Origin: Podospora anserina
Lineage: Eukaryota
Direction of reading: 5' to 3'
DNA length: 64,000 nt
Assembly (NCBI GenBank): GCA_017654855.1
Contig: CM030334.1
Span: forward strand, 2,170,001-2,234,000
Shown in pieces: positions 1 through 64,000 of the stretch. Under the pieces are notes generated by a model. The model searched no databases and had not been told where the DNA came from. It saw only the letters and a program-made list of their open reading frames with translations. Each line of letters begins with the position of its first letter. The stretch's first letter is position 1. The translations under genes and the position numbers were made by a program.

Positions 1-1071
1 TCAACCCTCATAGCCAGATTGCGCGTCCTTTGCTCTCGACCCAGACCTCGAGCCTCCATAGGACAGAAGCAAAGTTGGGCAGCGACGTGGGAGTGTTCGT
101 GTCCGAGCTCCATGACCCCATACAAGCACTGAGGTTCGTCTTCTTCGGCAGTGAGTCTAAAATGATGGAATCGGCCCCATTGTGTGCGACGCGATGCAGC
201 ACGAAGATCTCATGTTCTGTATCAGCCTCTTTTATACATAGCCTCCCTCCGCGAGCAAACCGCTAGAACTTACTCTGTCCAGTCCACGCTTGACGTGCGC
301 ACGCGGCTCTTTGTCAGAGCTCGGATGAAGATTCATTGTCTGGCCGCGGCTCTACTCTGTTCAATCTCACTGGTAGGTTTTTGACGCCGCACACATAGGC
401 CGCAGCTACAAAGCGAAAGTAATTACTCTTCGGCCCTTGCCATAAAAGCCATAACAGGCAAGGAGCGTCCGCAGGCACAACAAACAATAGGCGAGGCGTC
501 TGACACGCGAATATCAGCTCACAAGATTCCCGCCCCTGCGCACGCCTCTCTGGAAAACTGCAACAGATGGACCACCATGGACACAGGGTCTTGATGTTTC
601 TACTGTCCACAGCCTAGCGTTGCAGATTGCTCAAGCGTCATGGTGCGAGTTGCAGCACACCGAATCAAGACCATTCTTGCCCTCGCGTCCGCACGTTAGC
701 TTTGCCCGCTCGCGCGTGTACGCGGTAGTATTTCTATCGGCCGACTGAGTTGCGTCATTCGCTTGCGGGAGTCCAAGTTTTTTTATCAAAGCTGGGATGA
801 ACTTTTAACTTTGGTTTTGCATAGCTACGACTTTTAGAATTATTTCTAACACGTTCATTTACTGGTAGTTAAACAGAGTGAAGCAAAGGAGGAAAAGGCC
901 TTTAAAAATTCCTTCTTCAACAGAGTTCAGGGGTCAAACAATGCACACACACAACGTGACTCCTATTTCCTGAACAACATCTATTTTTTATTTCCGCACC
1001 CAGAAAGACGTAAAAGATATTGGTCATCCATACTATCAATCCACCCAGTCTCCTCCTTCCTTGCTGCTATC

Positions 1072-1299
1072 TCAGATATAAGAAGTGCCCCCCTCAATCA
1101 GGTCAAATGCCGCGATACCGCAGCCGACCTCCCGGAACACAGCCCTCCACAGCAATATTGTCACAGTACGGGCAGAAATGAGGTTCGCCGGGGGCTCGAT
1201 GAAGGTACAGGGCTGGGCAGAATAAGGCTACTGGTTTGTAAAGTTCCGGATTGCTTCCTGGCGTCTCTGATTATGGAAGTGGTCACCTGGCGGCCGCAT
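1072..1299 (-). pseudogene. Truncated, internally deleted copy (D) of the unrecognised Cys4 family
   Basis: ATG at 1299 in good context (CAAACAATG). Reads MRPPGDHFHNQRRQEAIRNFTNQ*, then shifts frame to FCPALYLHRAPGEPHFCPYCDNI, then returns to WRAVFREVGCGIAAFDLIEGGTSYI* (TGA 1074-1072). N- and C-terminal blocks align by eye to the 1685..2179 protein; the middle is missing. Confidence 0.7.
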
Positions 1300-1684
1300 T
1301 GTTTGACGTGGGTATCGCGGAGCCTATTGTCGGTGCGTGGTTAAGGTGCTTTGGCTGAGGGTGGGTGCTTGTGGGCAAGAGACAGTTTGGTTCAATGCCA
1401 AGTTTTCTGATGGACTCGATCGACAGTGGAGGATGGAAAAGCAAATGTTTGGTAGGTTAAATACCTAGGCATGTGTCACATAGGTAACTGTCAAGGTAAG
1501 GTTCATCACTAGTCCCAGCTGGTTCTTCTGACATGTCCAACACCCATTACTCACAACAACAAACACAGAAAACTGGCTTATATCCACTGCCACACATCTC
1601 TGCTCCCTTTTCAGCCTTTTCTCACCTACGCAGACTCCAGCACATCAAAAACAGCCGCCACCACCATCACAAAACCCACCAACA

Positions 1685-2179
1685 ATGTCCTTACTCGCCC
1701 AAGCCGAAATCAACTTCTACCGTCACCAAGTACAGCACAACTTCCTCTCCCAATGCAGCATCTGCCCCTTTCTGGCCACCCTCAACCTGAACCCCCCCGT
1801 TCCCTGCCCTCTATGCTGCAACATGGTCGGCTTCCTGAACCTAAACCACACAGTCGACACTCTCAAAAGACTGGTCAGAATCTCCGAGGTGTTTCACTGG
1901 CCAGAGTTTGTCGCCCACATCCACGACGCACTCGTGGCGAGAGTGACTCATTTTTTCAGGTTTGAGCCAGATGATGATGATGTTGAAGGACTTCCTCCCC
2001 ATTTTAGACGTCGTGCTGTTCCCCAGACTGAACAGCAGATGATGTTGTGCCAGCAGGCGATGGTGTGGCATATCGGGAGGGATGTTGAAGTGGTGTATGA
2101 TCAGGCGTTGACGAGGAGGGTGGTGTTTAGGCAGTTGGGGTGTACGGTTGGGCAGTGGGAGATGGTTGTGGGTGAGTAA
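1685..2179 (+). CDS. Hypothetical 164-aa protein, intact copy (A) of an unrecognised CxxC-Xn-CxxC family
   Basis: Single-exon ORF with a good start context (AACAATGTCC) and the C-rich to G-rich codon trend of real genes in this window. Motifs CSIC...CPLC, ISEVFHWPE and RRVVFRQLGC are shared with four paralogs in the window. Confidence 0.8.
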   Translation: MSLLAQAEINFYRHQVQHNFLSQCSICPFLATLNLNPPVPCPLCCNMVGFLNLNHTVDTLKRLVRISEVFHWPEFVAHIHDALVARVTHFFRFEPDDDDVEGLPPHFRRRAVPQTEQQMMLCQQAMVWHIGRDVEVVYDQALTRRVVFRQLGCTVGQWEMVVGE

Positions 2180-2584
2180 TCTATGAGTTGAGTGGAAGGG
2201 GGGTAGATGGATTAGCTTCGGGGTGTCAGGAGGTTGCCGAATGACGAGATGTGGTGATAGCAGACTTGGGTATCAGTCAATAGAAGACATCACTGTCACA
2301 CTTGATGATTTCCCCTGGACTGGCGAAGTTGAGCCTTGTATAACTCGACGAATTATGCAATCTTGGATAACAAGAAGAATCCACTTGCAGAGATCTTATC
2401 TAGGAATTGCAAGAGCTAAACAGGCCCCTTCCGGATCAGAGTACTCCTTCCCAGCTTAACGAGAAATGTGTGCAAGCTGATACTATCAACCTCCTCCAAG
2501 TTTCGATCCTCTTCAAAGCCTGCCCACTTCTGCCCATCTCGAACGGTTCTCCGGTATTAAATACGCAACACTACAATCCCTAAG

Positions 2585-3077
2585 ATGCCCCTCAACAACG
2601 AGGCTGAGAGTGATCACGAAGACACGATCACAAACTTCAAGGTCATTTGCATGACCTGCGCAGCTCTCGCCCGTCACTCCAAAGCTCCGCCCTGCTAACG
2701 ATGTGAGATCATGGAGAGATGGGCCAGACTCCCCTTTCACAGCGAAGCCTTTCTCTAGAAGCTCGTCCGAACATCGTAGGTTTTCCACTACGATGAGGTT
2801 CTGGCCTACGCAATCGACGCAATCATCGACAGAGTTACACGAACTCTCAAAATCAGAAGGGACCTTGACTTCAATGATCTGCCCACCCCATCGGAGACGC
2901 AATAATGGGCCGCGTACTCCTGAACAAATCGAGTTCGCTCAGCTGTCAAAGCCATTCCCAACAACCGAGGATTTTGAGTATGTGTACAAGAAAGCGATGC
3001 TCAGAAGAAGCGTGTTCCGAGCTGTGGGGTGCCATATTGGAGCGTACAACTTCATCCGAGATGGAGTTCATCAGTGA
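2585..3077 (+). pseudogene. Full-length pseudogene copy (B) of the Cys4 family
   Basis: From ATG 2585: MPLNNEAESDHEDTITNFKVICMTC...PPC*RC...FL*KLVRTS*VFHYDEVLAYAIDAIIDRV...NDL. In-frame stops at 2696 (TAA), 2756 (TAG) and 2777 (TAG). One extra base near 2883 leads to PPHRRR...EDFEYVYKKAMLRRSVFRAVGCHIGAY. Colinear with copy A. Confidence 0.85.
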
Positions 3078-3914
3078 GAGACAAATCTCGGCTCCGTAAG
3101 TATAGACTGGGATGTCGTCTGGTTAGATGTGGGACATGCGGGTAAACAGTGGGGCACAAAAGTAAACAAGCCCCTTTTAGCCCCTTTACCATAAGTGGAG
3201 CCTTATTCAGCAAGGATCTTTTTGCAACACCAGATACAGAGAAAGGGCCAAACTACATAGTTCTGCGGCCCATTGTTCTGGCTATAGCTATTGTGACTGC
3301 GTGGATATTTTGTTTACATGTGAAGTAATGTGCCGAATCCCTACCTATGCTGCATCACTTCACATGGATCTCCAAGTCCTCTTCTCGTAGGTTGCGTGGT
3401 TCAGTGGACCGCCGAAAACAGGGACAAGACGTGTAACTGAAGACAAGAATTTCACCGAGAGTAAAGAAAGCTTAATTGATATGTGGAGAAAGTGGATGTG
3501 ATTCGAGGAGGATGGAAAGTGATAACCACTGTACTTGACCCCCAGTTCCTACAAGGCCGGCGTTGGTAAGTCTCGAGCCTACTCTGGGCCTAAGATGTAG
3601 CCTAACAAACGTTAGAGAAAATGTGGAGTTGGGTTCAAGTTTTGGCATGGTGTGTTACATCATCATCATACATACACATATTCATGTCCCCAATTTCGAG
3701 GTCCCTCTATGTATTTTGACGTGTACTTGGTAGACATTGGGTTAACTGAGTAGCCATGTACGTGAAAGTAAAAAAACCCCTTTCCAAACCCCCTTTTTGC
3801 AAAGCATTGACCCAACCCGAAAAGAAAAATGAAATTGTCCTGTAAACCGACCATAACTAGCCCAGAAGAAACACAAAGTCATAAAGTCATAATCATAGTA
3901 GCCAGCAGCCACAT

Positions 3915-4400
3915 TCACCTCTTATCTTCGCCCACCAAGTGAAAGTAAGTCCATGGTCCCAATGTCGTATCCCCGTTCTCTCACTGGCCTTCCGCCGTTG
4001 CGTCGCCTTCGGATACGCCTCCCCAATGTCCTTCTGGGCAAGGCCACTCTGCAGCCAACCGCCTTCTGTCCGCCTGGTACAAACGGCTGTCTGTCACCTC
4101 ATAGGCTCTGTTGACCCTCTCGGCGATAGCAACCCTGAGGTATGCCTCCATCTCATCAAAGCGAAATTCATGGGAAATCTCGGAGATTTGCCAGAGGATG
4201 TTTCGTGTATGGATATCTTTCCTTGATCCATGTCTCCATTTCGATGCACTGTGCGCATTTTCTGGAACAGGGCCCTTTGCAGGTTGGGCATGCTTTTCTG
4301 AAGTCGAGGATGGCTTGGCTGCGGTAGATGTTGTTTTTGTTGTAAATCAGCTTGAGCTTGCTGGTTTCTGGTGGCAGAGCCTGTCCCTCACACGAATTCA
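3915..4400 (-). pseudogene. Frameshifted copy (C) of the Cys4 family; 5' end unresolved
   Basis: Three frames join to give NNIYRSQAILDFRKACPTCKGPCSRKCAQCIEMETWIKE / DIHTRNILWQISEISHEFRFDEMEAYLRVAIAERV...AAEWP / KDIGEAYPKATQRRKASENGDTTLGPWTYFHLVGEDKR* (TGA 3917-3915). Frameshifts near 4215 and 4030. Confidence 0.75.
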
Positions 4401-5108
4401 GGTGTCGAAACCCGACTCTGGAGTCACCTTAACGGTGGTCCATGGCCCGCGACGCGCCCAAAAGCTCGCGAAAAGAGAGGGACAAACATAGAGGTCCTCT
4501 CCATCTTCCCCATTTTATCACGCCCTTGTTACTAGCCTCTCCTGATTGGCTGCATCGAGGGTCAGCTGGGAAAACTTCCATTCCTTTCGGGTTAGGGTTG
4601 AGGCTGAGGAGGGGGCTGTCCCAAGCAAGTGGCTTGCTCTGCGTGCTCTAACCACCCTGCCTGGATGAGTCATTGGTCTGGGGAATACAAGGAGTCTCCG
4701 ACTAGGTTGGGACCTGTAGTGATTATACAATGCAGGTACAATATGGTACGTTGTCAATTCACAAAGTCTACCTACACTTCAATTCGTACAGTCTAAAGTT
4801 CAGTTCACACGTGCGGGATTACTACAGTATATCTAATGGCTATCGCGACATCACATTTGATGGTCAATTCTAGGCCTCCTCATACCAGGAATCACTTTAT
4901 CGAGCTTACATGCATGCAAGATCTTGAAGCGCGGATTACTTTGGGTATCTCAGTTTATAATTGGCCTGTCTAAGCTTTTGTTAACCCTGATCCGAGCTAT
5001 CAACTTGTCCTCCTTGGGAATCTTGTCGCTAGCCATCCACCCATTCAGTTCCTCCGGGTTAAGCTTCAGTCTTCTTTGTTAAGCTGCCGATCGTCGAAAC
5101 TGGACTCC

Positions 5109-6049
5109 TTAAGGTTTGCCTTTGCTGATTGTGCACACCACGGTTCCAGACTGGCATTTGCGATTGGAGTTGGCTTGGTTGTTGTTGGGATAGGTGTAGG
5201 CTTTGTTCTCGCAGGGCTTGAACCACTCGGGGCCTGAAGTCGCAGCCCCATTCTCTCTGAAAGGGTGTATACAAGGCCCTTGGCCGTTTTCCTCAGGGCA
5301 GGGCTTCCCCTGTAGCCAGAAATTGTCGTTACAGCCGGCAATCTCAACGCCATTGCAACGGCACATGATAGGAAAGTTGAATCCGTCGACATACGAGACG
5401 TTGGTATCGCCCCCTCCGAAAGCCAAGCCTTGTTTCTCCAGGGAGAGTTCCCACATGACTCTCCCGCCCATTCTTGATTTTGCCCGCTTCCACAACAGCG
5501 ATGTGGCCCGAGTAGTCGGTACGGAGTCTAATCTGGCCTCTCTCTCCATTAGCCAACTGACCAGGAGCAGGCTGCCCATCTACCAGATCAGGCACAGGGG
5601 GCTTTCCGGAATCAAAATTGTGTTCGTTCTTGGTGTGCATAGTCTGGAGGGCCTTCTCAGCCTTGTTCTCGAAGACAATCGTCCAGAAGCCACCGTAGGG
5701 AAGAGGAGTGACGGTCGCCGCTACTGCCGGGTCAAGGGTGCGGTTGTCGTCCAAAGCGCCGCCGCTTGCTGTGCCCAAACCCATACAATCAGCACCCACA
5801 ATGCCGGAGAACTTGGGAGCGGCCGTGGTGACTGAAGTAGCGAATGTGGTGATGGGCATAGGAAAGAAAGGGTTGGTGGCATCTTCCTTGCCCTGGATGC
5901 CTGAGACCTTGGGGCCAGTCATGGTACTTGTGGTAGTCGTGGTAGGAAAAGTTGAAGCCGTCCGAGGCGACGTAGGGAATATCCACGGCGAGAGCAGCCG
6001 TGAAAAGGAGAACGGCCGAAGCCAGGAGGGTAGAGAGCGTGAAGGACAT
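5109..6049 (-). pseudogene. Secreted thaumatin-like protein with Thr-rich N-terminal region, broken by two frameshifts
   Basis: Signal peptide MSFTLSTLLASAVLLFTAALA (ATG 6049). A shift near 5975 enters the 5344..5922 frame and a shift near 5455 enters the 5109..5579 frame. The last frame carries NVSYVDGFNFPIMCRC (thaumatin DVSxVDG-like) and a Cys-rich C-terminus with AYTYP. No intron signals were seen at the shifts. Confidence 0.75.
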
Positions 6050-7350
6050 CACTGTGCCAGGTAAGGTACTGTAGGGCGTGGTGAACAGGCTTTGGCGAAG
6101 GTGTAGAGGGTGTTGTGAACTGATGGCAAAGGCTGTTGCCGACAAGGATGGAGAACAGGTTCTCTGGGGTGTCTTTGCTGCTCGCTGATGGGAAGAGAAA
6201 GAGGATTCAGGGGAGTAGTAAAAAGTCATTGTATACTTAAGGATCGGGGCTGGAACGCTTGGGCGCAGTGAGCAGTTCTCATCAGATTCATTTGATATTG
6301 GATTCAAGTGGAGATAATAGGAGCAGTTACACGGTCTTATCGTAAGGGAGCCAGCATTTTTAGAGATCAGAGTGTGTTGATATCAGGGGGGAGATCGCAG
6401 AATACTTCAGACAAAACTATGAACCTCTCCATAGAGACGTTCTCAGTGGAGATAAGAGCAGCAGCAAAGTGGGCTGGTTGAGGTGAAGAGCAGGGTCAGA
6501 GAATTCTCTTCCGCGCGCGGTTTAAAAACAACCAGACGACGCTCATCATGTTGAGGAGCGGTCAAAACGTCACACAGTGAAGGGTGTGTTTGTTCCCATG
6601 CGAAGCTTGACAACCCGCATAGGCTCTGTGACAGTAGTGAGCAACACATCTTGTTGACTCCCAAAGAGCACTTACTTCACGTCAGGGTATTGAGCAAACC
6701 AATATTAACTGCCAAGAAGAGCAACAGAGGTCCATATCGGGACTCCGCTAGCACAATGTTTGGAATAGGGGCAAGCAAGCCTTCGCAAGGCATGGGGTTC
6801 ATCCAAGTGTTGAGGATAGCCATAGCATGTTTGTTGTCCATGACAATGATACGGCCCCTTCGGTGAGCAAGGAGCAGTCAGCATAGATTGACTCTTATCA
6901 TCTTCACACCCCCCAACCAGTCACCAGCCCTCGTGGGGTAGGAGAGTTGTTCAGCATGACGATAAGTCTGTCATTTAGATTATACAAGAGCAAGAAGCTC
7001 GCTAGAACATGATCATACAGACTCTTGACTGCTCAAGCAAGCTCTGGATTGTGGGCATGACAGTCCTCACTGGAGTAAGGAGGTAAGTGGCTCACTGTCA
7101 CGAGTGAATAGTTCAACAAGACCTCTGCCCCATCCGGCAACACCGTAGCGAATCATAAGTCCCGTATCAAGATTTGCTCCCCGGTCAGAGATCTATACAA
7201 TGAGTGCTTCATTGCCACTACCCATTCTCTTTCTCTCACGAACATCCAGCAACAAAGACCTCTGACAACCGGTCTTTCACTCCTCCACTCTATCAGCAAA
7301 GGCATCCCTCCCTATTTAGGTGTATACCCCGATCCACCATCACCCCCAAG

Positions 7351-7746
7351 ATGAAATTCCTCGCCTCACCTCTCATCGTTGCTTCGGCCCTGACCTCCAT
7401 CTTTGCCTCCTCCCTCCCTGCTTCCCAAACCACCTTCGAGACCAAGGTCACCCAAGCCCGCAATGTCACCAGAGCTGCTGCCGCCGATGGCCAGTTCTTG
7501 TCTGGTTGTGACAACCCCAAGCTTTGGTCACAATCTATTGCTTGCCCGGACAAGAACGCACACGGAGCTTGCAGGAACCCACACCAGGATCTGGAAGACG
7601 GGCAGATCAAGTACGCTCATGAGTGGTTCAAGGCTTGCCAGGGGAGGGTTTATACCTTTCCTAAGGATGACACCGCCAATTCCAATGGAAAGTGTCAATC
7701 TGGGATTGTTAACTGCCAGATTCTTCCCAAGCAAAGCACAACTTGA
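7351..7746 (+). CDS. Small secreted cysteine-rich protein (131 aa): C-terminal half of a thaumatin-like domain
   Basis: Signal peptide MKFLASPLIVASALTSIFA. GC..LW...CP...G.C.NP...EWFK.C...YT.P....ANSN.KCQSG.V.C.I aligns closely with the C-terminus of the 5109..6049 gene. Six Cys. Confidence 0.8.
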   Translation: MKFLASPLIVASALTSIFASSLPASQTTFETKVTQARNVTRAAAADGQFLSGCDNPKLWSQSIACPDKNAHGACRNPHQDLEDGQIKYAHEWFKACQGRVYTFPKDDTANSNGKCQSGIVNCQILPKQSTT

Positions 7747-10700
7747 GGAGAGGATATCTATTTTGGCTTGGAGTCAGGAGCATCGCAGTTGGGAGATGGA
7801 TGATTAGATGGTTGCCACAATAGCTTACCTATGGAAGTCAAAAGTTTCCCTTGATTGTTGGGTCTTGAGCACTCCTTTCCTGTTTTTACTCGTTTGATCA
7901 GCTTCTGCTACACGTTTAGAACTCATATATATTTTCTCTACTCACATGTCCACAGTTATCTGCTTACCTACCTTAGAGACTTACCTTCACACATTCACAC
8001 CTGATTTTACACCAGAGAAAGTAGGTAGCGGAGAAGCCGGTGGGACCGCTACGAACCAACAACCACTGCCCAACACAAAGTTTGGACAGGCTTCCGAGGT
8101 CATCACCAGATACATTGGAATTCAGGGCGTCCCAAGACGGTTCACACAGCTCAACATCGATAATGAATCAGCAGACAGCCTTCATAGCTGTCCACCAAGT
8201 TCACCAACCAGCTGCCTCCGGACATGTGTGAATCTCTGGGGCGCGATGGGCGTGTTGTAGCCAAGGCGGGTGTCATCCAACCCAATTCTCCTTCTCCTTT
8301 CATCATCTGGCACCATAGCCACCCTCTCACATGTTGTATATACGACTTTTCTTGTGGGGCACCTACAAAGGGCCTGCTTTTCACCAGACCCACACCTGAC
8401 TTGCTCTTAAGGCTGGGTTTGCTTACTGTTTACTTTTACTCCGAACAACTAACAACAACCAACTGTAATATCAATTTGTCAACTAATTTACCTGCCTTTT
8501 TGGCCTCTCTTTCGCGGGCAGTGACTTCACTAGGCCACCGCCCTACATTTCCCTTTCACATACCTGATCTAGCAACCTTACCTTTCGCCAAACTAATCCC
8601 AGCCTCCTACCCACACCTAGGCTGTGAGGAGCTCCCCTCCTGTCGTTGACCCTGGAGCGCACCATCATCGCCACGACCGTCTCAAATTCTACGACGAGTT
8701 CAACCCTCTCGGCAATGCTAATCGGTATGGATCCTCCTACACGCCGACAACAGCCTGCGCCCACCTGGTTTCCGTCCGCATTCACAAGTTCTACAACAGG
8801 AACCTGTACCTGTGGTATGTGACCTCTAAGTTCCTCCCCTTCACTTCAACACGTTACTGACTATACTCCAGGACAAAATAGTCGGCTATCGTTGCACGGC
8901 GCGCTCCCTCCTCTCCCTACCTCCACCCTCCCTCGTGTGCCGTCCGTCTGGTCAATTAAACAACCACCTACCCACTCACCCCTTCACACCAACAAAAGTG
9001 CGCCATGACCGACCCAGTGGGAACCCCTCATTCGTCATGGTCAGACCTGCTTCAGATGCAGGAAGATGACCACGGATTGGCATGAGGCACCGTCGTGGGA
9101 AGGAAGCCTCGGGACGCACGATCAAGGTTTTCCCCCTCCCGAGGGCATTGACCTCGAACACCCGCCGCCGCACGCTTGACTTCTGCCCCCCGACGAGCAG
9201 CACAAAAAGATGGAGATGCCCTGGTCTGCCGCCAAGAGCGGCCAAACCGGGGGTCAATGGAGAGAAGTCATGTTACCTCTTGTCCAGGGAGCCAGATCTA
9301 CCTACCAGTGTTGTGATGCTGAACGGCCTGGGATCGTTTTTTCGCCAATCTCGCCAAGACCACACAGAGCGGTTGCTTTTTGTGAACCGGATCCCCAACG
9401 GCAATATGTCTCTCCAGGTCGAGGACATCAGCGTCGATGACATGGATGCTTGGACTTGTACCTTGGTTTTTTTTTTTTTTTTTTTTTTGGAACGAATGCT
9501 TCCAGGACATTCCGTGCGCCGTGGTGGTGATGGGGATGATGGGGCTCATCTCATGTAAGGGGTAAAGTAAATAATGAATGTGGAGTTAGTTGGCGGGGCG
9601 ATGGAAAACGACGTGAGGGTTGGGGTTTTGTGATATTGGGGTTGTAGCATTGGCGAAGGGTGCAGAGCTAGTGTAATGAGATTATTGTATGCGATTTAAG
9701 ATGAACATGAGGGAGGGATAGAGCTTGCTCAGATGTACCTCGGATGGTGAGAATAGTGAATTTAAAACATGTACGAGTTTTGGCGGTCCGGTTGTGATCA
9801 TGCAGTGCTCCCACATCCTCCTGGCTTTGACAGCATCATCTGGATACTCGCCTGTGGAAGAGGTAAGTTATCTTGAGGGCTCCATGAAAGCCTATGTGAG
9901 GGTCTTGACCTTGATAGGACATCCAAAAGATTTGCCCGTGACACTGTGTACCACATGGATGGGCCCGGTCGTCGACTGTCTCCGGACACGATAGGAGAGC
10001 TCTTAAATGCTAAATACTCTTGGTTGCTGTGTTGTTCTTGGGCAAGCAAGACCTATTCTCAAAGATCCGCTTCACATGCATTCCAAACCAATTCCGCAAT
10101 CACAACAAAACATGAGGCAAAAAAGGCATCATCCGCCATGATTCAAGCGATATGCAGGAACCAAAAACTCACTCACTACCCACCCACCTCTTCAAGACCC
10201 CTTGCATTGCGGCTGCACAATCTGAGACATCTTAGACACCTCATCCAGCCTCCCGCCCGCCACCTCCGGACCGTTTTCTCCTTCTGTCGACATCTCAACT
10301 CAAGTCTCACACCCACGCTTCATGCATACCGACGCGAACAATATCAAAATGTAATGAACCGTTTTCATAACCATCTATTTCATCCCATCTATCTTTCCAA
10401 ATATATATACAATTGAAATCCAGACCAAAAAAAAAACCCCCTATTTCTGCCTGGTAGTAAACAAAACAGGACACAAACAAACAGTTTTCTTTTCTCTCCG
10501 TCACCCTCCCTACCTAACCCAACAGAAAAAAAAAAAGAAATAGTCAACGATGCCGTATGAAGAAACGAAAATGAAAACAAAAAGAGTGATTGTTTCGAAC
10601 AAGACGATTAGGCCGTGAAGATGAAAGATCCATATCCAGATTTGCCGAGTTTGATAATTGTTGTCGTGTCAAAACAGGGTAGAGAAAAAAAAAGGATAAA

Positions 10701-57990: not shown

Positions 57991-59930
57991 ATGCCGCCGC
58001 GACGCCTATTTGGACCGCAGTACCTGTCGTGCTTTTACTGTGGCCACACCACCAAACTGCGCAACGATGGCAGTACAACACACTTCCGATGTCTCTCTTG
58101 TGATGCCGACAACTATCGCGATAGGGTAGAGTTCTATCATTCCTGTCAAAGTCCCCCTCTATACTGACATGACGCTAGAATGGCGAGCCGGTCAACCCTC
58201 CAGTGGCACGAACTAATACTTCGACGCCCGCACCTCGATACGCTGTCCCACGCCCTGGGTCCCCTCCAGCAAGCCCGGCCAACTCAGTCTTTTGCAAGAC
58301 GTGCTTAAACAATCAACGTCTTTTGAGTGCCAGTCTTGCCCAATATCTTCCCGATTCCGACGAGTCCGACGATTCAGACAACGGGGAGCGAGAGAGCCGG
58401 TTTGATGAGTTTCGCATTACCCAAGAGCGCATCTATCCCCAGATGTGTGCCGAGTGTGAGCCCAAAGTCCGGCAGCGTCTAGACCAGGCGGCCTACACAG
58501 CCAAGACCGATACCCTTCGGCGCATGATGGACCGCAATTCCAACATTCGGCGCAAGATTTACATCCAGTCGAGGATGCCTATAAAGATACTGAACGGCAT
58601 TGGGAGATTGCTGTGGGTGTCGGGCTTCGTGTTACAACTTGTGTGGCATAGTTTGCTCTCTACCACAAACACCAACCAGATCCCATATTCCTCTTGGCTG
58701 CCATTGTCAGACACATTGCTGAAATGGAGCATTGGAGCCACAGTTTTGGGGATGTGGTGGAATCCACGGTTGTTGGATATGATAGCTGGAAACAGCAGGC
58801 AGATTACTGGGCTATTTCGCTGGTACTTGATTCAGTTTATTGCCGTCTTCTCGCGTATATATCTACGTGTTGCTCCAGGCTCTGCAAATGCTGCTTTGCG
58901 GAAGTTGCCCTTCCAAACCGATTTGCAAATCATCGGCGCGACTGCTGCCACCATAGTATGTGCTATCCATCCATCTATTCATGTCCAAGATCAAATACTA
59001 ATCAGCAAGCAGCTATTTTTGATGTCATGGCAATCGGTCGGCCTCAAGCCTTTGCCTGTAATCAAACCAACCGCGAAACAATCAAACCAGTCCTCATTAC
59101 GGGGGAGACCAGTCGCGAAGAAGACGCCTGCCTCTTCCGGAGCCAAACCCAGAGCCTCCAGTGCGAAGAAGGACACCATAAAGTCTCTGGGAGATCTGTT
59201 GGATGAGCTGGAGCATATTGAGAGCTCCCCTCCAGAACCAAAACGACCAAGCACAGCAGCATCTACTGTCTATGATTTGTCACCCATCAGACGCGCGAGG
59301 GATGAGCCGCGTGCACCACGAATGGGCTTTACACATACCCTGGAAGCCCAGCAGCTTACCAACTCTCTTACCAGCATTCAAGAGCTTGACTCGATGAATC
59401 TTGTCTCACCGTCCTTTTTTCAGGACCCCCCTCAAAGGCAGGTCAATTATTCTGCAGAAATGGAGTGGGAGCCAGCGCCACCGCAACAGCAGGTCTCCTC
59501 GCATCGCGCTTTCAGCACTCAGGGCCAACGCAAGGCTCAGCCGTTTGGGGCTGCCCCAGTAGAACCCAAGAAGGGTCCGTTCTGGTACAAAGTCCCGCCG
59601 GCTCCAGTAACGCCTGCGCAGAGAGCATTTAACCCTCCGAACCAACCAAGACTGAGACCAAGCCCGGTGCAAGGTCAAGAAATCCAGTTCCGGGGCACTG
59701 GGACGCCCCAGAAGCAGTTGACTAGCAGTCGGCACTATGAGCCCGCGCCAGAATTTGCTCCAGCAACCTTCTTTGCGCAGCCAGGTCCGGATGACCCGAG
59801 AAACGAACTGACCGGCATGTTTTCGGGCAGTTTCAGTCTCGAGCACGAGAGTCCGAAGGAAGAAAAGCCACAGTCGACATGGCTTGGAAGATTGCGGAAC
59901 AGAACACCGGCATCAAACAAGAAGAAATAG
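57991..59930 (+). CDS. IMA1: Integral inner nuclear membrane protein Ima1 (NET5/Samp1 family)
   Basis: Introns 58126-58178 and 58956-59012. Four CxxC pairs (CFYC, CLSC, FCKTCLNNQ, YPQMCAEC), then TM segments and a disordered tail. Confidence 0.88.
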
Positions 59931-60416: not shown

Positions 60417-61421
60417 ATGGAAAACCCAAACGACAACAACGACAACTCGCACTCCCACTACCGCACAACCGGCACACGCCGAATCCCCTCATGGCTCAAC
60501 GCCATACCCTCCGAAGCAGGCGGGGGAAGCGACGCGACAAGCAGAACAGGCCCCTCCGTCGCATCCCATCGCCACCACCACCACCCTCAAGGCCCGCCAC
60601 CGCGATATTCATTCGGACAGCCAGAGAAGTCATCATTTCCAGCAGCAACTCAAGACCAATCCATGTCCCCGCCCAAAATGAAGATAAGAGGACATTTCAA
60701 CCCTCCGAATCAGCAGCTTTACTCTGAGACATCACTTGCCTCTTCCGGCCCCCAGCAGCAGCAGCAGCATCAGTTTCAAACCCCAACAGCTTCCACCCAA
60801 CCCACACAGCCATCATCACAACAGTTACTCTCACTCTCACGACCCGAGCCACCGTGCCCAAGTAAACCCTCCCCTGTTATGGACCCCCTCCGTCAAGAGG
60901 TCACAACCAATTTCACGTCTCACTGCCCGGTGTGCATTTCTTCGTCGTCGTCGTCGTCCACCGGCCAATGTAACCGCTGCCAAATGATAAAATCATACGT
61001 CCACCAACCATGTCACACCTACCGCTTTTTGAGCTCGTTTCTGTTGCCCATCTCGGAAGTTTTCAACTACGAGGAGATGCTGGCTTATTTGAATGAGACG
61101 ATTATTGAGCGGGTTATGAAGGGAGGGAAGGCGGAGAAGGTTTATCCCGTGATGGACGACTTTGGGGTTGTGGTGGAAAAGGCAAGGAGGAGGAAGGAGT
61201 TTTTTGGAGGGGGGATGGATAGGGTGGAGGGGAGGGGGAGGAATGGGAGGGTTATTGGGCAGTGGGGGATGGTTAGGGAAGGGACACCCGTGAAGAGGGA
61301 AGAGGGGGGAGGGGGAGGAGGAGGAGGAGGAGGAGGAGGAGGAGGAGGAGGAGGAGGAGGAGCAGGAGGGCAGGGGTCTAAAAGGGGGGAGAGGAAGAGG
61401 GGGTGGAGTGAGGAGGGGTAG
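60417..61421 (+). CDS. Hypothetical 334-aa protein: disordered Q/S/P-rich N-terminus, Cys4-family domain (copy E) and poly-Gly tail
   Basis: From 60879, LRQEVTTNFTSHCPVC...CNRCQMI...HTYRFL...ISEVFNYEEMLAYLNETIIERV...DDFGVVVEKARRR...IGQWGMV aligns to copies A-D. Confidence 0.8.
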   Translation: MENPNDNNDNSHSHYRTTGTRRIPSWLNAIPSEAGGGSDATSRTGPSVASHRHHHHPQGPPPRYSFGQPEKSSFPAATQDQSMSPPKMKIRGHFNPPNQQLYSETSLASSGPQQQQQHQFQTPTASTQPTQPSSQQLLSLSRPEPPCPSKPSPVMDPLRQEVTTNFTSHCPVCISSSSSSSTGQCNRCQMIKSYVHQPCHTYRFLSSFLLPISEVFNYEEMLAYLNETIIERVMKGGKAEKVYPVMDDFGVVVEKARRRKEFFGGGMDRVEGRGRNGRVIGQWGMVREGTPVKREEGGGGGGGGGGGGGGGGGGGAGGQGSKRGERKRGWSEEG

Positions 61422-62887: not shown

Positions 62888-64000
62888 CTAGCCCAACTCC
62901 AACCTCCCCAACTTCCCCCTCAAAACCCCCTCCAACCCACCCCCATCCCTACAAAACCCCGCCAGCTTCACCGCCCCCTCCCCCCACCCCCTCGCCCTCT
63001 CCCTCTCCCCAGCAGCAAAACAATCAATCCCGTGATTAAACGCCGTAGCAGCCATCCACTCCAGTTCCTCCTCCGGCCAGCCAGCCTCGCTCTCCCTTAA
63101 CTCCCTCGCCTTCCCGCACGCCTCCTCCAGCAGCCTCATCGCCAACCCGTCATCCACCGGCAACGTAGCCTGGAACAAACACCTCGTATACTTTGCCAAT
63201 TTCACCGCGTCAAACGCCTCGAGCGCCCAAATCTCATTGACAAGTCTTCGCATGGTTGAGTACAGAACTGCTTGGGGTGTTAGTTAGCTTGTTTGGGTAA
63301 CAAAAGGGGGGTAGGGGGGTTACCTTGCCCTGGAGCTCTCGCTCGGAGCAAACTATCCGCCATAGCCTGAAAAGCCGTCACACTTTTGCAGCCGACTGCT
63401 CTTTGCACAATCCCACCCAAATCATCCCACGCTTCCAGCACTACCGCGGCTTCAAAGTCAAATGTCAGCAGCGTGGCGTGTTTCCTTAGCATGTCATCCC
63501 TCGAGTGTTCGTCTAGCCGTGGCAAAAGCTCTGGAAGGTCGGTATCGAATGCCAAAACATGTTCTCGCATGGCAGTGTAATATTCTAGTTGCTTCGTGAC
63601 ATTGTCTTCCGCCCGTGCTTGGGAGACCAACGCCGAGGAAATGATGAACCGGGAAAAGAGCATCTTCAAACCCATCTCAACAAGCTGAGACCCTCCCATG
63701 TCAGGCGGAAAGTGGCCGGTGATATGGACGCAAGAGGTGAGCATTCTGACTATGTACCGTAGGTCCCACGTTGTTGTGTTCTTCAGAGCGAGGTTATAAG
63801 AGTTGCGGCTGAACCACTCGAGTTCGTCAACCGTAAACAGCTTACGTCTTGGATTCTCTTTCTTCTGCTTTTCGAGGGCGACAACGACTGTTTGATCGGT
63901 CAGGGGGCTGCCAGTATGGGCATTCAGGGGTAGCTCACCAGCATCAAACATATCGCAAAGGTCTTCAACAACCCCGTTTTCACCAGCGTCTGCCCTATCA
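62888..64000 (-). CDS. SPO22: Meiotic SPO22/ZIP4-like TPR protein, 3' part (runs off the window)
   Basis: Introns 63938-63888 and 63323-63268. Motifs ELEWFSRNSYNLAL, LLTFDFEAA..L..WD.L, KLAKYTRCLFQ and WPEEELEWMAATAFNHG.D. Confidence 0.85.

Follow-up and report, generated by a model that had tools for sequence, protein, structure and literature searches.

The Spok genes are among the closest described systems to the locus considered here: they belong to the same species, Podospora anserina, are multi-copy with a pseudogene, and encode a cysteine cluster within proteins of about 700 amino acids that join a PD-(D/E)XK nuclease, a C-x3-C-x13-C-x5-H-x7-H motif, and a kinase domain (PMC6660238). 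Our subject is a cluster of four tandem genes and gene relics, copies A to D, at the beginning of a 64-kb stretch of P. anserina DNA (the window), together with a fifth copy, E, towards its other end. In contrast to Spok, this family has a single domain of about 160 amino acids with the pattern CxxC...CxxC, and it is found at a different locus. The four tandem copies are real, old, and members of one undescribed family with four conserved cysteines (Cys4). We think it probable that they record the birth-and-death decay of a zinc-stabilized interaction domain, with copy C persisting as a transcribed pseudogene; the historical part of this reading, i.e., the expansion, the faster evolution, and the breakage, is largely shown.

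Other described systems concern disrupted reading frames. The PSC pseudogenes that A-to-I editing restores in Fusarium graminearum and in Neurospora crassa, which belong to the same fungal class, resemble copy B in having in-frame TAG codons, of which B has two (PMC10776026); however, B adds a TAA and a frameshift, and C and D are broken by insertions and deletions that lie beyond A-to-I editing. That a P. anserina gene can be expressed through a frameshift has a precedent in PaYIP3, with one shift conserved across Pezizomycotina at a slippery site with a pseudoknot (PMC3777964), whereas the shifts at our locus are several, occur at unrelated sites, and are absent from the gene models of homologues. 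Copy C is similar to the transcribed pseudogenes and nTARs of P. anserina, in which transcription outside annotated coding sequences is common; 1,732 nTARs are reported, one overlapping annotated pseudogenes (PMC9801653). The closest known proteins are the orthologues of Pa_3_6320 (QC764_306320, KAK0674411, and KAK4204685) and the short forms KAK4204693, KAK0662541 to KAK0662543, and KAK0741866. They share the domain and its conserved residues and are direct orthologues or close paralogues of A to E; all are named hypothetical proteins, for which the searches yielded no family, structure, or paper.

Four tandem copies of one Cys4 family

The window is part of P. anserina chromosome 3. Neighboring reading frames group with PODANS_3_6160 and, from the Podospora anserina species complex, with the orthologues numbered 306157, 306160, 306170, and 306320, and the offset obtained from rows of Table S1 in PMC9801653 places window base 1 at about 2,744,843, directly after Pa_3_6150. 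The cluster A to D appears to be without annotation in the P. anserina reference, because sister-species models of copy A bear de novo numbers and not numbers lifted from P. anserina; the records examined link none of the decaying copies to a gene number of P. anserina.

Six-frame translation recovers the four homologs of the original prediction with their motifs and in the orientation (-,+,+,-). Copy D (1072..1299, minus strand) is a relic with an ATG at 1299 and a retained C-terminal block; a net +2 break at about 1222–1230 falls inside the first CxxC, about 95 core codons are deleted at about 1155, and 17 of 28 conserved columns are absent. Copy A (1685..2179, plus strand) is an open reading frame (ORF) of 164 amino acids with the cysteines C24xxC27...C41xxC44. 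Copy B (2585..3077, plus strand) is a full-length relic with a TAA at 2696–2698, TAG codons at 2756–2758 and 2777–2779, and a single frameshift at about 2870–2885. Copy C (3922..4329, minus strand) is shifted in frame at about 4221, 4031, and 3985 and has no ATG; at 4329, where homologues begin, it has an ATC in a start-like context (CAAC-ATC), and it retains 15 of the 28 conserved columns. Copy E (60417..61421, plus strand) is an intact long form of 334 amino acids, orthologous to Pa_3_6320, in which a disordered N-terminal tail with the motif WLxxIPS precedes the shared domain that starts at about 60876. All four family cysteines are retained in A, B, C, and E. Three relics had been predicted and three are found; as a correction, C contains no in-frame stop and is disrupted by its frameshifts and its missing start codon. 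The three sequence blocks said to unite the copies are present in their quoted form, with the reservation that the third is partial in two copies: C has neither FR nor GC, and D has lost the first half of the block to its deletion.

Two annotation differences were observed at these copies. Models of copy A from sister species and from Logan have 118 amino acids; they begin at Met48 and thus lack the Cys4 part entirely (window 1685–1825). Either this start is wrong, or the genomes concerned contain an upstream break. An NCBI record of copy E (P0010) ends at 261 amino acids, compared to 334 in the window ORF and 319–322 in sister species, and may be truncated.

The significance of pairwise similarity was determined from frameshift-aware alignments compared with 300 random window stretches per pair. 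None of the 300 nulls reached the scores for A-B (177), E-B (113), E-C (83), P0039-D (101), P0039-C (110), and P0038-C (131), and the same is true for P0039-B and P0038-B. The A-C (51) and A-D (50) scores are marginal alone, reached by 2 of 300 nulls each; P0038-D is reached by 4 of 300, and the E-D alignment is not significant, with 83 of 300 random stretches reaching its score. Because A-C and A-D are marginal, the membership of C and D follows from E and the intact homologues and not from A. The profile that yielded P0038 and P0039 included parts of C and D, but this does not make the test circular, because each of the two proteins matches A alone (E 4e-16 and 4e-23, respectively). In a tblastn search, P0039 from Cercophora samala matches D with 74% identity over 27 amino acids (E 4e-8). 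A profile from non-window homologues only gives 161 bits for E, 89 for A, 69+42 for B, and 25+19 for C, and misses D (3.4 bits against 3.7 for the best reversed-window control). The five copies are 24–36% identical in pairwise comparisons, and no meaningful DNA repeats were found between them. The original observation is thus confirmed.

A family profile built from 11 window pieces and P0001 matched 28 of 1.84 billion representative proteins. Names were looked up for 10 of the 28, and these, plus those named in other searches, are all from Sordariales; 15 family proteins carry no looked-up name. Members occur in Podospora, Triangularia, Cercophora, Apiosordaria, Lasiosphaeria, and Parachaetomium. 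The predicted restriction to one lineage thereby holds at the level of Sordariales for the named matches, yet the family extends over several genera, and E is a gene of the parent type, conserved in Sordariales. The cysteines of the two CxxC pairs are conserved in 24/25, 20/25, 26/26, and 24/25 members, and a polar set (H55, S67, E74, N80, R86, D133, and R144) is conserved as well. WLxxIPS is present in 12 of 28 homologues and in none of the five from the cluster clade; the cluster-type short forms are without the disordered N-terminal tail and have an insert of about 25 residues.

Searches for named relatives agree with the description of the family as unnamed and unassigned in Pfam: none of 31 members reaches a curated Pfam cut-off, no Pfam family is matched by more than one member, and the best hit of the PDB sequence search has an E of 0.75. 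A word-based protein search returned only near-identical proteins for A (1 match) and 3 matches for the family profile, the ESM Atlas gave only leads (<0.9 and TM <0.4), and viral contigs contained no family match. Scans of metagenomes found nothing for A and one long-form locus, a family gene beside Sec6 on a metagenome contig (L001, 3107–4101); compared with P0052, this gene is short of one base directly behind WLH, and the deletion may be real or an assembly error. In the literature outside subscription papers we found no description of these genes, the family, or a syntenic cluster, six gene identifiers gave 0 matches, and the supplements of PMC9262711, PMC6709928, and PMC7299030 contain no true match. 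For Pa_3_6320, a mean intensity of about 6.5 and no difference between mating types are reported in PMC3125171.

Age of the cluster and the question of genetic conflict

In the phylogeny of all 33 rows, A to D and five Podosporaceae proteins form one clade beside the E orthologues (support 100/99), and the same clade is recovered with support 100/100 from the domain columns when C, D, and P0041 are left out. Copy A is placed with its orthologue from Triangularia verruculosa (KAK4204693, P0037; 76 of 162 residues identical, support 100/96-97), D with its orthologue from C. samala (KAK0662543, P0039; 40 of 67 identical, support 100/96), and B with KAK0741866 (P0040) from Apiosordaria backusii (97/78 for all rows, 96/85 in the domain-only tree). 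The affinity of C to KAK0662542 (87/64, long branch) is weak. Members of the clade that appear intact occur in Triangularia, in Apiosordaria, and in Cercophora, where three of them have consecutive accessions. The C. samala proteins KAK0662541 to KAK0662543 are encoded on one 80-kb contig; in T. verruculosa, a single 479-kb contig encodes the orthologues of A and E, whose accessions differ by 8. Because A, D, and B pair with proteins from these three species, and because the accessions are linked, the duplications predate the split of Podospora from Triangularia, Cercophora, and Apiosordaria. The tree, and the comparison of broken with intact copies, bear out the birth-and-death evolution that had been proposed.

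Identity to T. verruculosa is 47% for A versus 64% for E, and identity to C. samala is 60% for D versus 77% for E; the stem of the cluster clade is long, with 1.24 changes per column in the domain-only tree. The cluster clade evolves faster than E, and a faster rate is equally compatible with genetic conflict and with relaxed selection. Under the former explanation the short forms would be spent drivers, antidotes, or allorecognition factors, of a class not known so far, derived from the housekeeping parent E and replaced whenever a conflict came to its end. The long stem fits this idea, as do the tandem copies in C. samala, the two members 3 accessions apart in Cercophora scortea, and the fact that wtf drivers and Spok leave pseudogenes too (PMC6660238). 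Nevertheless, the Pfam and PDB sequence searches revealed no match to HET, NLR, nuclease, or kinase; none of 31 members matches a HET, HeLo, NACHT/NB-ARC, or repeat-sensor domain at the Pfam cut-off; and A, with 164 amino acids, does not have the Spok architecture. The window lies at about 2.745 Mb (PMC9801653 Table S1), far from the chromosome 3 Spok block at 358,693 (PMC6660238). An independent DNA run differs from the window at only 2 of 8,381 bases, and thus this one run gives no sign of divergent alleles; at least 99% of the sequence words are present in 14 of the 24 runs of a list that is ranked by this share and in which five runs may be the source; and the supplements of PMC9262711 name no Pa_3_61xx-63xx gene. 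Finally, the copies are old, share 24–36% identity, and have not been recently homogenized. A role in allorecognition, meiotic drive, or a toxin-antidote system, of which the original prediction called such clusters typical, gains no direct support from these results, and we regard it as unlikely.

The two C. scortea proteins (KAK3320658 and KAK3320661; P0056 and P0060) are encoded on one contig and fall outside the A to D clade; they are possibly a second, independent tandem expansion.

Breakage of the copies and the transcript over copy C

The breaks are genuine features of the DNA: over positions 1–8381 the independent DNA run (X12) shows 2 substitutions and 0 gaps. P0036 and P0063, two Logan proteins that deviate from the window at 2–3 residues, share the second frameshift of C, which therefore predates those lineages; P0063 implies one further insertion, and thus a frameshift, in C in another lineage. 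Because C retains all four cysteines, most of its divergence seems to have occurred before it broke. Repeat-induced point mutation was considered as a cause of the decay and is ruled out, given TpA/ApT ratios of 0.40–0.71 in comparison to 0.62 for the window.

Scored against six homologues, each small break is better explained as an insertion than as a deletion: the first C break in 6/6 comparisons, the second (C2/3) and third (C3/4) in 5/6 each, the D break in 6/6, and the B break in 3/6, including the closest homologue. The score margins are small (2–11), and five insertions out of five have a probability of 0.03 at even odds and of about 0.13 at two to one. The all-insertion pattern is odd, but ordinary slippage can explain it; in N. 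crassa, insertions are more than twice as frequent as deletions in repeats (PMC10234303).

The same pattern would also fit relics that are still expressed by recoding, with sexual-stage A-to-I editing of stops and +1 ribosomal frameshifting or base-deleting RNA processing mending the frames. Restorative TAG editing exists in Sordariomycetes (PMC10776026), and for P. anserina YIP3 a programmed -1 shift is described, with a +1 form hypothesized in two other clades (PMC3777964). However, the repairs needed are many. Copy C would require three shifts and a non-AUG start; in B, three stops and one shift would have to be mended, one of the TAG codons being situated at the Glu of the ISEVF motif; and D is without its core and beyond repair. 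None of the three is an ORF intact but for TAG, the hallmark of the PSC pseudogenes. The RNA contigs over C contain neither gaps nor edits (although contigs drop rare variants), and evidence on sexual-stage A-to-G changes comes from contigs only, of runs without a known stage, none of them listed over B. In the long-form homologue on L001 the frame difference is a one-base deletion instead. In contrast to a conserved YIP3-type shift, the models of P0037 to P0039 (gene models, read as proteins) are continuous, the sites differ by copy, and the RNA of C is no more structured than shuffles. With the small insertion margins added to these observations, we consider recoding extremely improbable.

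A putative transcript covers C (3667..4490, probably on the minus strand). It is present as one unspliced contig per run in three of three putative RNA runs from three studies (3706–4452, 3667–4441, and 3700–4490), without gaps relative to the genome. Besides one run of DNA type, the comparison covered three out of six putative RNA runs (share 0.20–0.27). The runs were chosen for containing this stretch, the tool guessed which of them are RNA, no run on the list is recorded as RNA, and the contigs show neither strand nor stage; X15 has two GT..AG joints elsewhere in the stretch, fitting RNA. The minus strand is assigned because the contig ends bracket C with margins the size of untranslated regions, which have means of 275 and 303 bases in P. 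anserina (PMC9801653). Over C, the only difference from the window is at 3801, and it is common to the DNA run, which continues on both sides. At this position all four runs have G where the window has A, reflecting either a reference error or a strain difference. We infer a surviving minus-strand transcription unit at C, which has the attributes of a transcribed unprocessed pseudogene: a disrupted ORF with intact homologues, and RNA that carries the disruptions unrepaired. For the other copies, the three runs contain one contig of 151 bases over A, one of 187 bases over D in a single run, and nothing over B, and we did not use these as evidence for expression.

The AUG codons of the C transcript open only short or out-of-frame ORFs, but the frame from the near-cognate ATC at 4329 is open to 4171 and encodes 52 residues with both CxxC pairs. 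One could assume that C is maintained at the RNA level, either as a regulatory RNA or as a cysteine-rich micropeptide translated from this ATC; the retained cysteines and conserved columns, and the similar contig ends in three studies, agree with such a role. On the other hand, the transcript folds no better than shuffled sequences (z +0.86; 19 of 20 shuffles fold as well), Rfam has no match, the runs had been selected for holding this stretch, and another lineage (P0063) has acquired a further frameshift in C. Leftover promoters are common on young pseudogenes. A retained function of the C transcript is thus quite unlikely in our estimation. A plus-strand ORF of 97 amino acids (4198–4491) is an unlikely product of the transcript, as none of the three contigs extends beyond the stop of this ORF.

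Predicted fold, history, and meaning of the family

The AlphaFold2 model of A, calculated from a 31-sequence alignment, is confident (predicted local distance difference test 92.2, pTM 0.86) and depicts a single all-alpha domain of seven helices and a short terminal hairpin. Foldseek searches with two models against PDB and BFVD returned 0 matches at E <= 0.001, and VIA produced no clear match (best Z 5.6, root-mean-square deviation 5.8, 69 aligned residues). The structural check suggested for A therefore yielded a confident model without a clear structural match. A missing match does not by itself establish a new fold, but the model makes one possible. Zinc binding had been proposed, and with four conserved cysteines in two CxxC pairs it is a reasonable inference.

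In the reading we favor, the four cysteines would bind one zinc and staple two helices, and the domain would be a non-secreted, non-enzymatic binding module that uses the conserved polar set. The long forms may be adaptors in which WLxxIPS of the tail joins the domain to a partner, and the tail-less short forms may have bound similar targets as specialized or competing versions that later became dispensable. In the history that the data largely show, an ancestor of Podospora, Triangularia, Cercophora, and Apiosordaria copied the domain of the E-type gene (Pa_3_6320); the copy lost the disordered tail, acquired the insert of roughly 25 residues, and was amplified in tandem into no fewer than four paralogues, whose divergence was faster than that of E. 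The P. anserina lineage is now losing the cluster through what looks like ordinary point and slippage mutation, with D and B dead, C deprived of start and frame while keeping a working transcription unit, and only A still open. Several hundred pseudogenes are annotated in P. anserina.

Alternatively, the domain could be an enzyme of unrecognized type, e.g., a small metal-dependent hydrolase, with H55, D133, and the arginines as its active site: D133 is found in 31/31, H55 in 28/30, R86 in 30/31, and R144 in 28/31 members. No enzyme was matched by sequence or fold, and in a small helical domain the conservation of polar residues can have structural reasons, which makes this alternative very improbable.

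Several observations weigh against the decay of an interaction domain. The small breaks all favor insertion, yet they lie outside long homopolymers, and outside repeats deletions are three times as frequent as insertions in N. crassa (PMC10234303). The intact homologues are automatic gene models read as proteins, and breaks in them could be masked by false introns; the cysteine part is missing from P0040 and P0041. The adaptor role of the long forms is suggested by architecture alone. The signal for relaxed selection on A is weak: in comparisons inside the species complex, 5, 7, and 10 of 118 residues of A are different, compared to 1–2 of 170 for CAP20, 14–15 of about 1,170 for the TBC gene, and 2–5 of 108 for the domain of E; relative to P. 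pseudoanserina the numbers are 7/118 for A, 4/108 for the E domain, 16/310 for all of E, and 1/170 for CAP20. The fragments of C are no more divergent than those of A (1–3 of 63–74). Position 80 of A is His, where 30 of 31 aligned members have Asn and where P0001, P0006, and P0007, unlike the P. anserina copy, retain it; this is a hint of relaxation and no more.

Other features of the window include a second duplication immediately beside the cluster. Two divergently oriented paralogues, at about 5109–6058 (minus strand) and 7351–7746 (plus strand), encode small, secreted-looking, cysteine-rich proteins (43% identity over 79 amino acids, E 2e-21) and are probably Pa_3_6155 and Pa_3_6157; they have only a sub-threshold match to thaumatin, and a GT..AG intron in this region (5517–5570) is spliced in X15. 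At 8348–8550, an element of about 200 bases is multi-copy: in the DNA run as well as in the putative RNA runs, many diverged contigs from elsewhere pile up on it. Rfam gives no match at the gathering score. The neighbors of E at 58443–59930 (plus strand) and 63280–63999 (minus strand) may be a nuclear envelope protein of the Ima1 type and a meiotic protein of the Spo22/Zip4 type; searches of Pfam with their exons gave no match.

One can also combine the more radical possibilities: a new zinc-stapled helical fold, tail-less copies that act as sexual-conflict or decoy genes on E or its targets, and a copy C that is used in one life stage, as a zinc-knuckle peptide or full protein, by non-AUG initiation or +1 recoding. 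We judge this combination, too, to be distinctly improbable. If the short forms were drivers or decoys, or if C were recoded, this would be a new mechanism; the present evidence points to ordinary gene turnover. The locus provides a clean natural series: the parent is conserved, a sister genus has the cluster intact, and the copies here represent three stages of decay. In addition, this unnamed Sordariales family, for whose confident model no structural match was obtained, represents a candidate for a new fold in a genetically tractable fungus.

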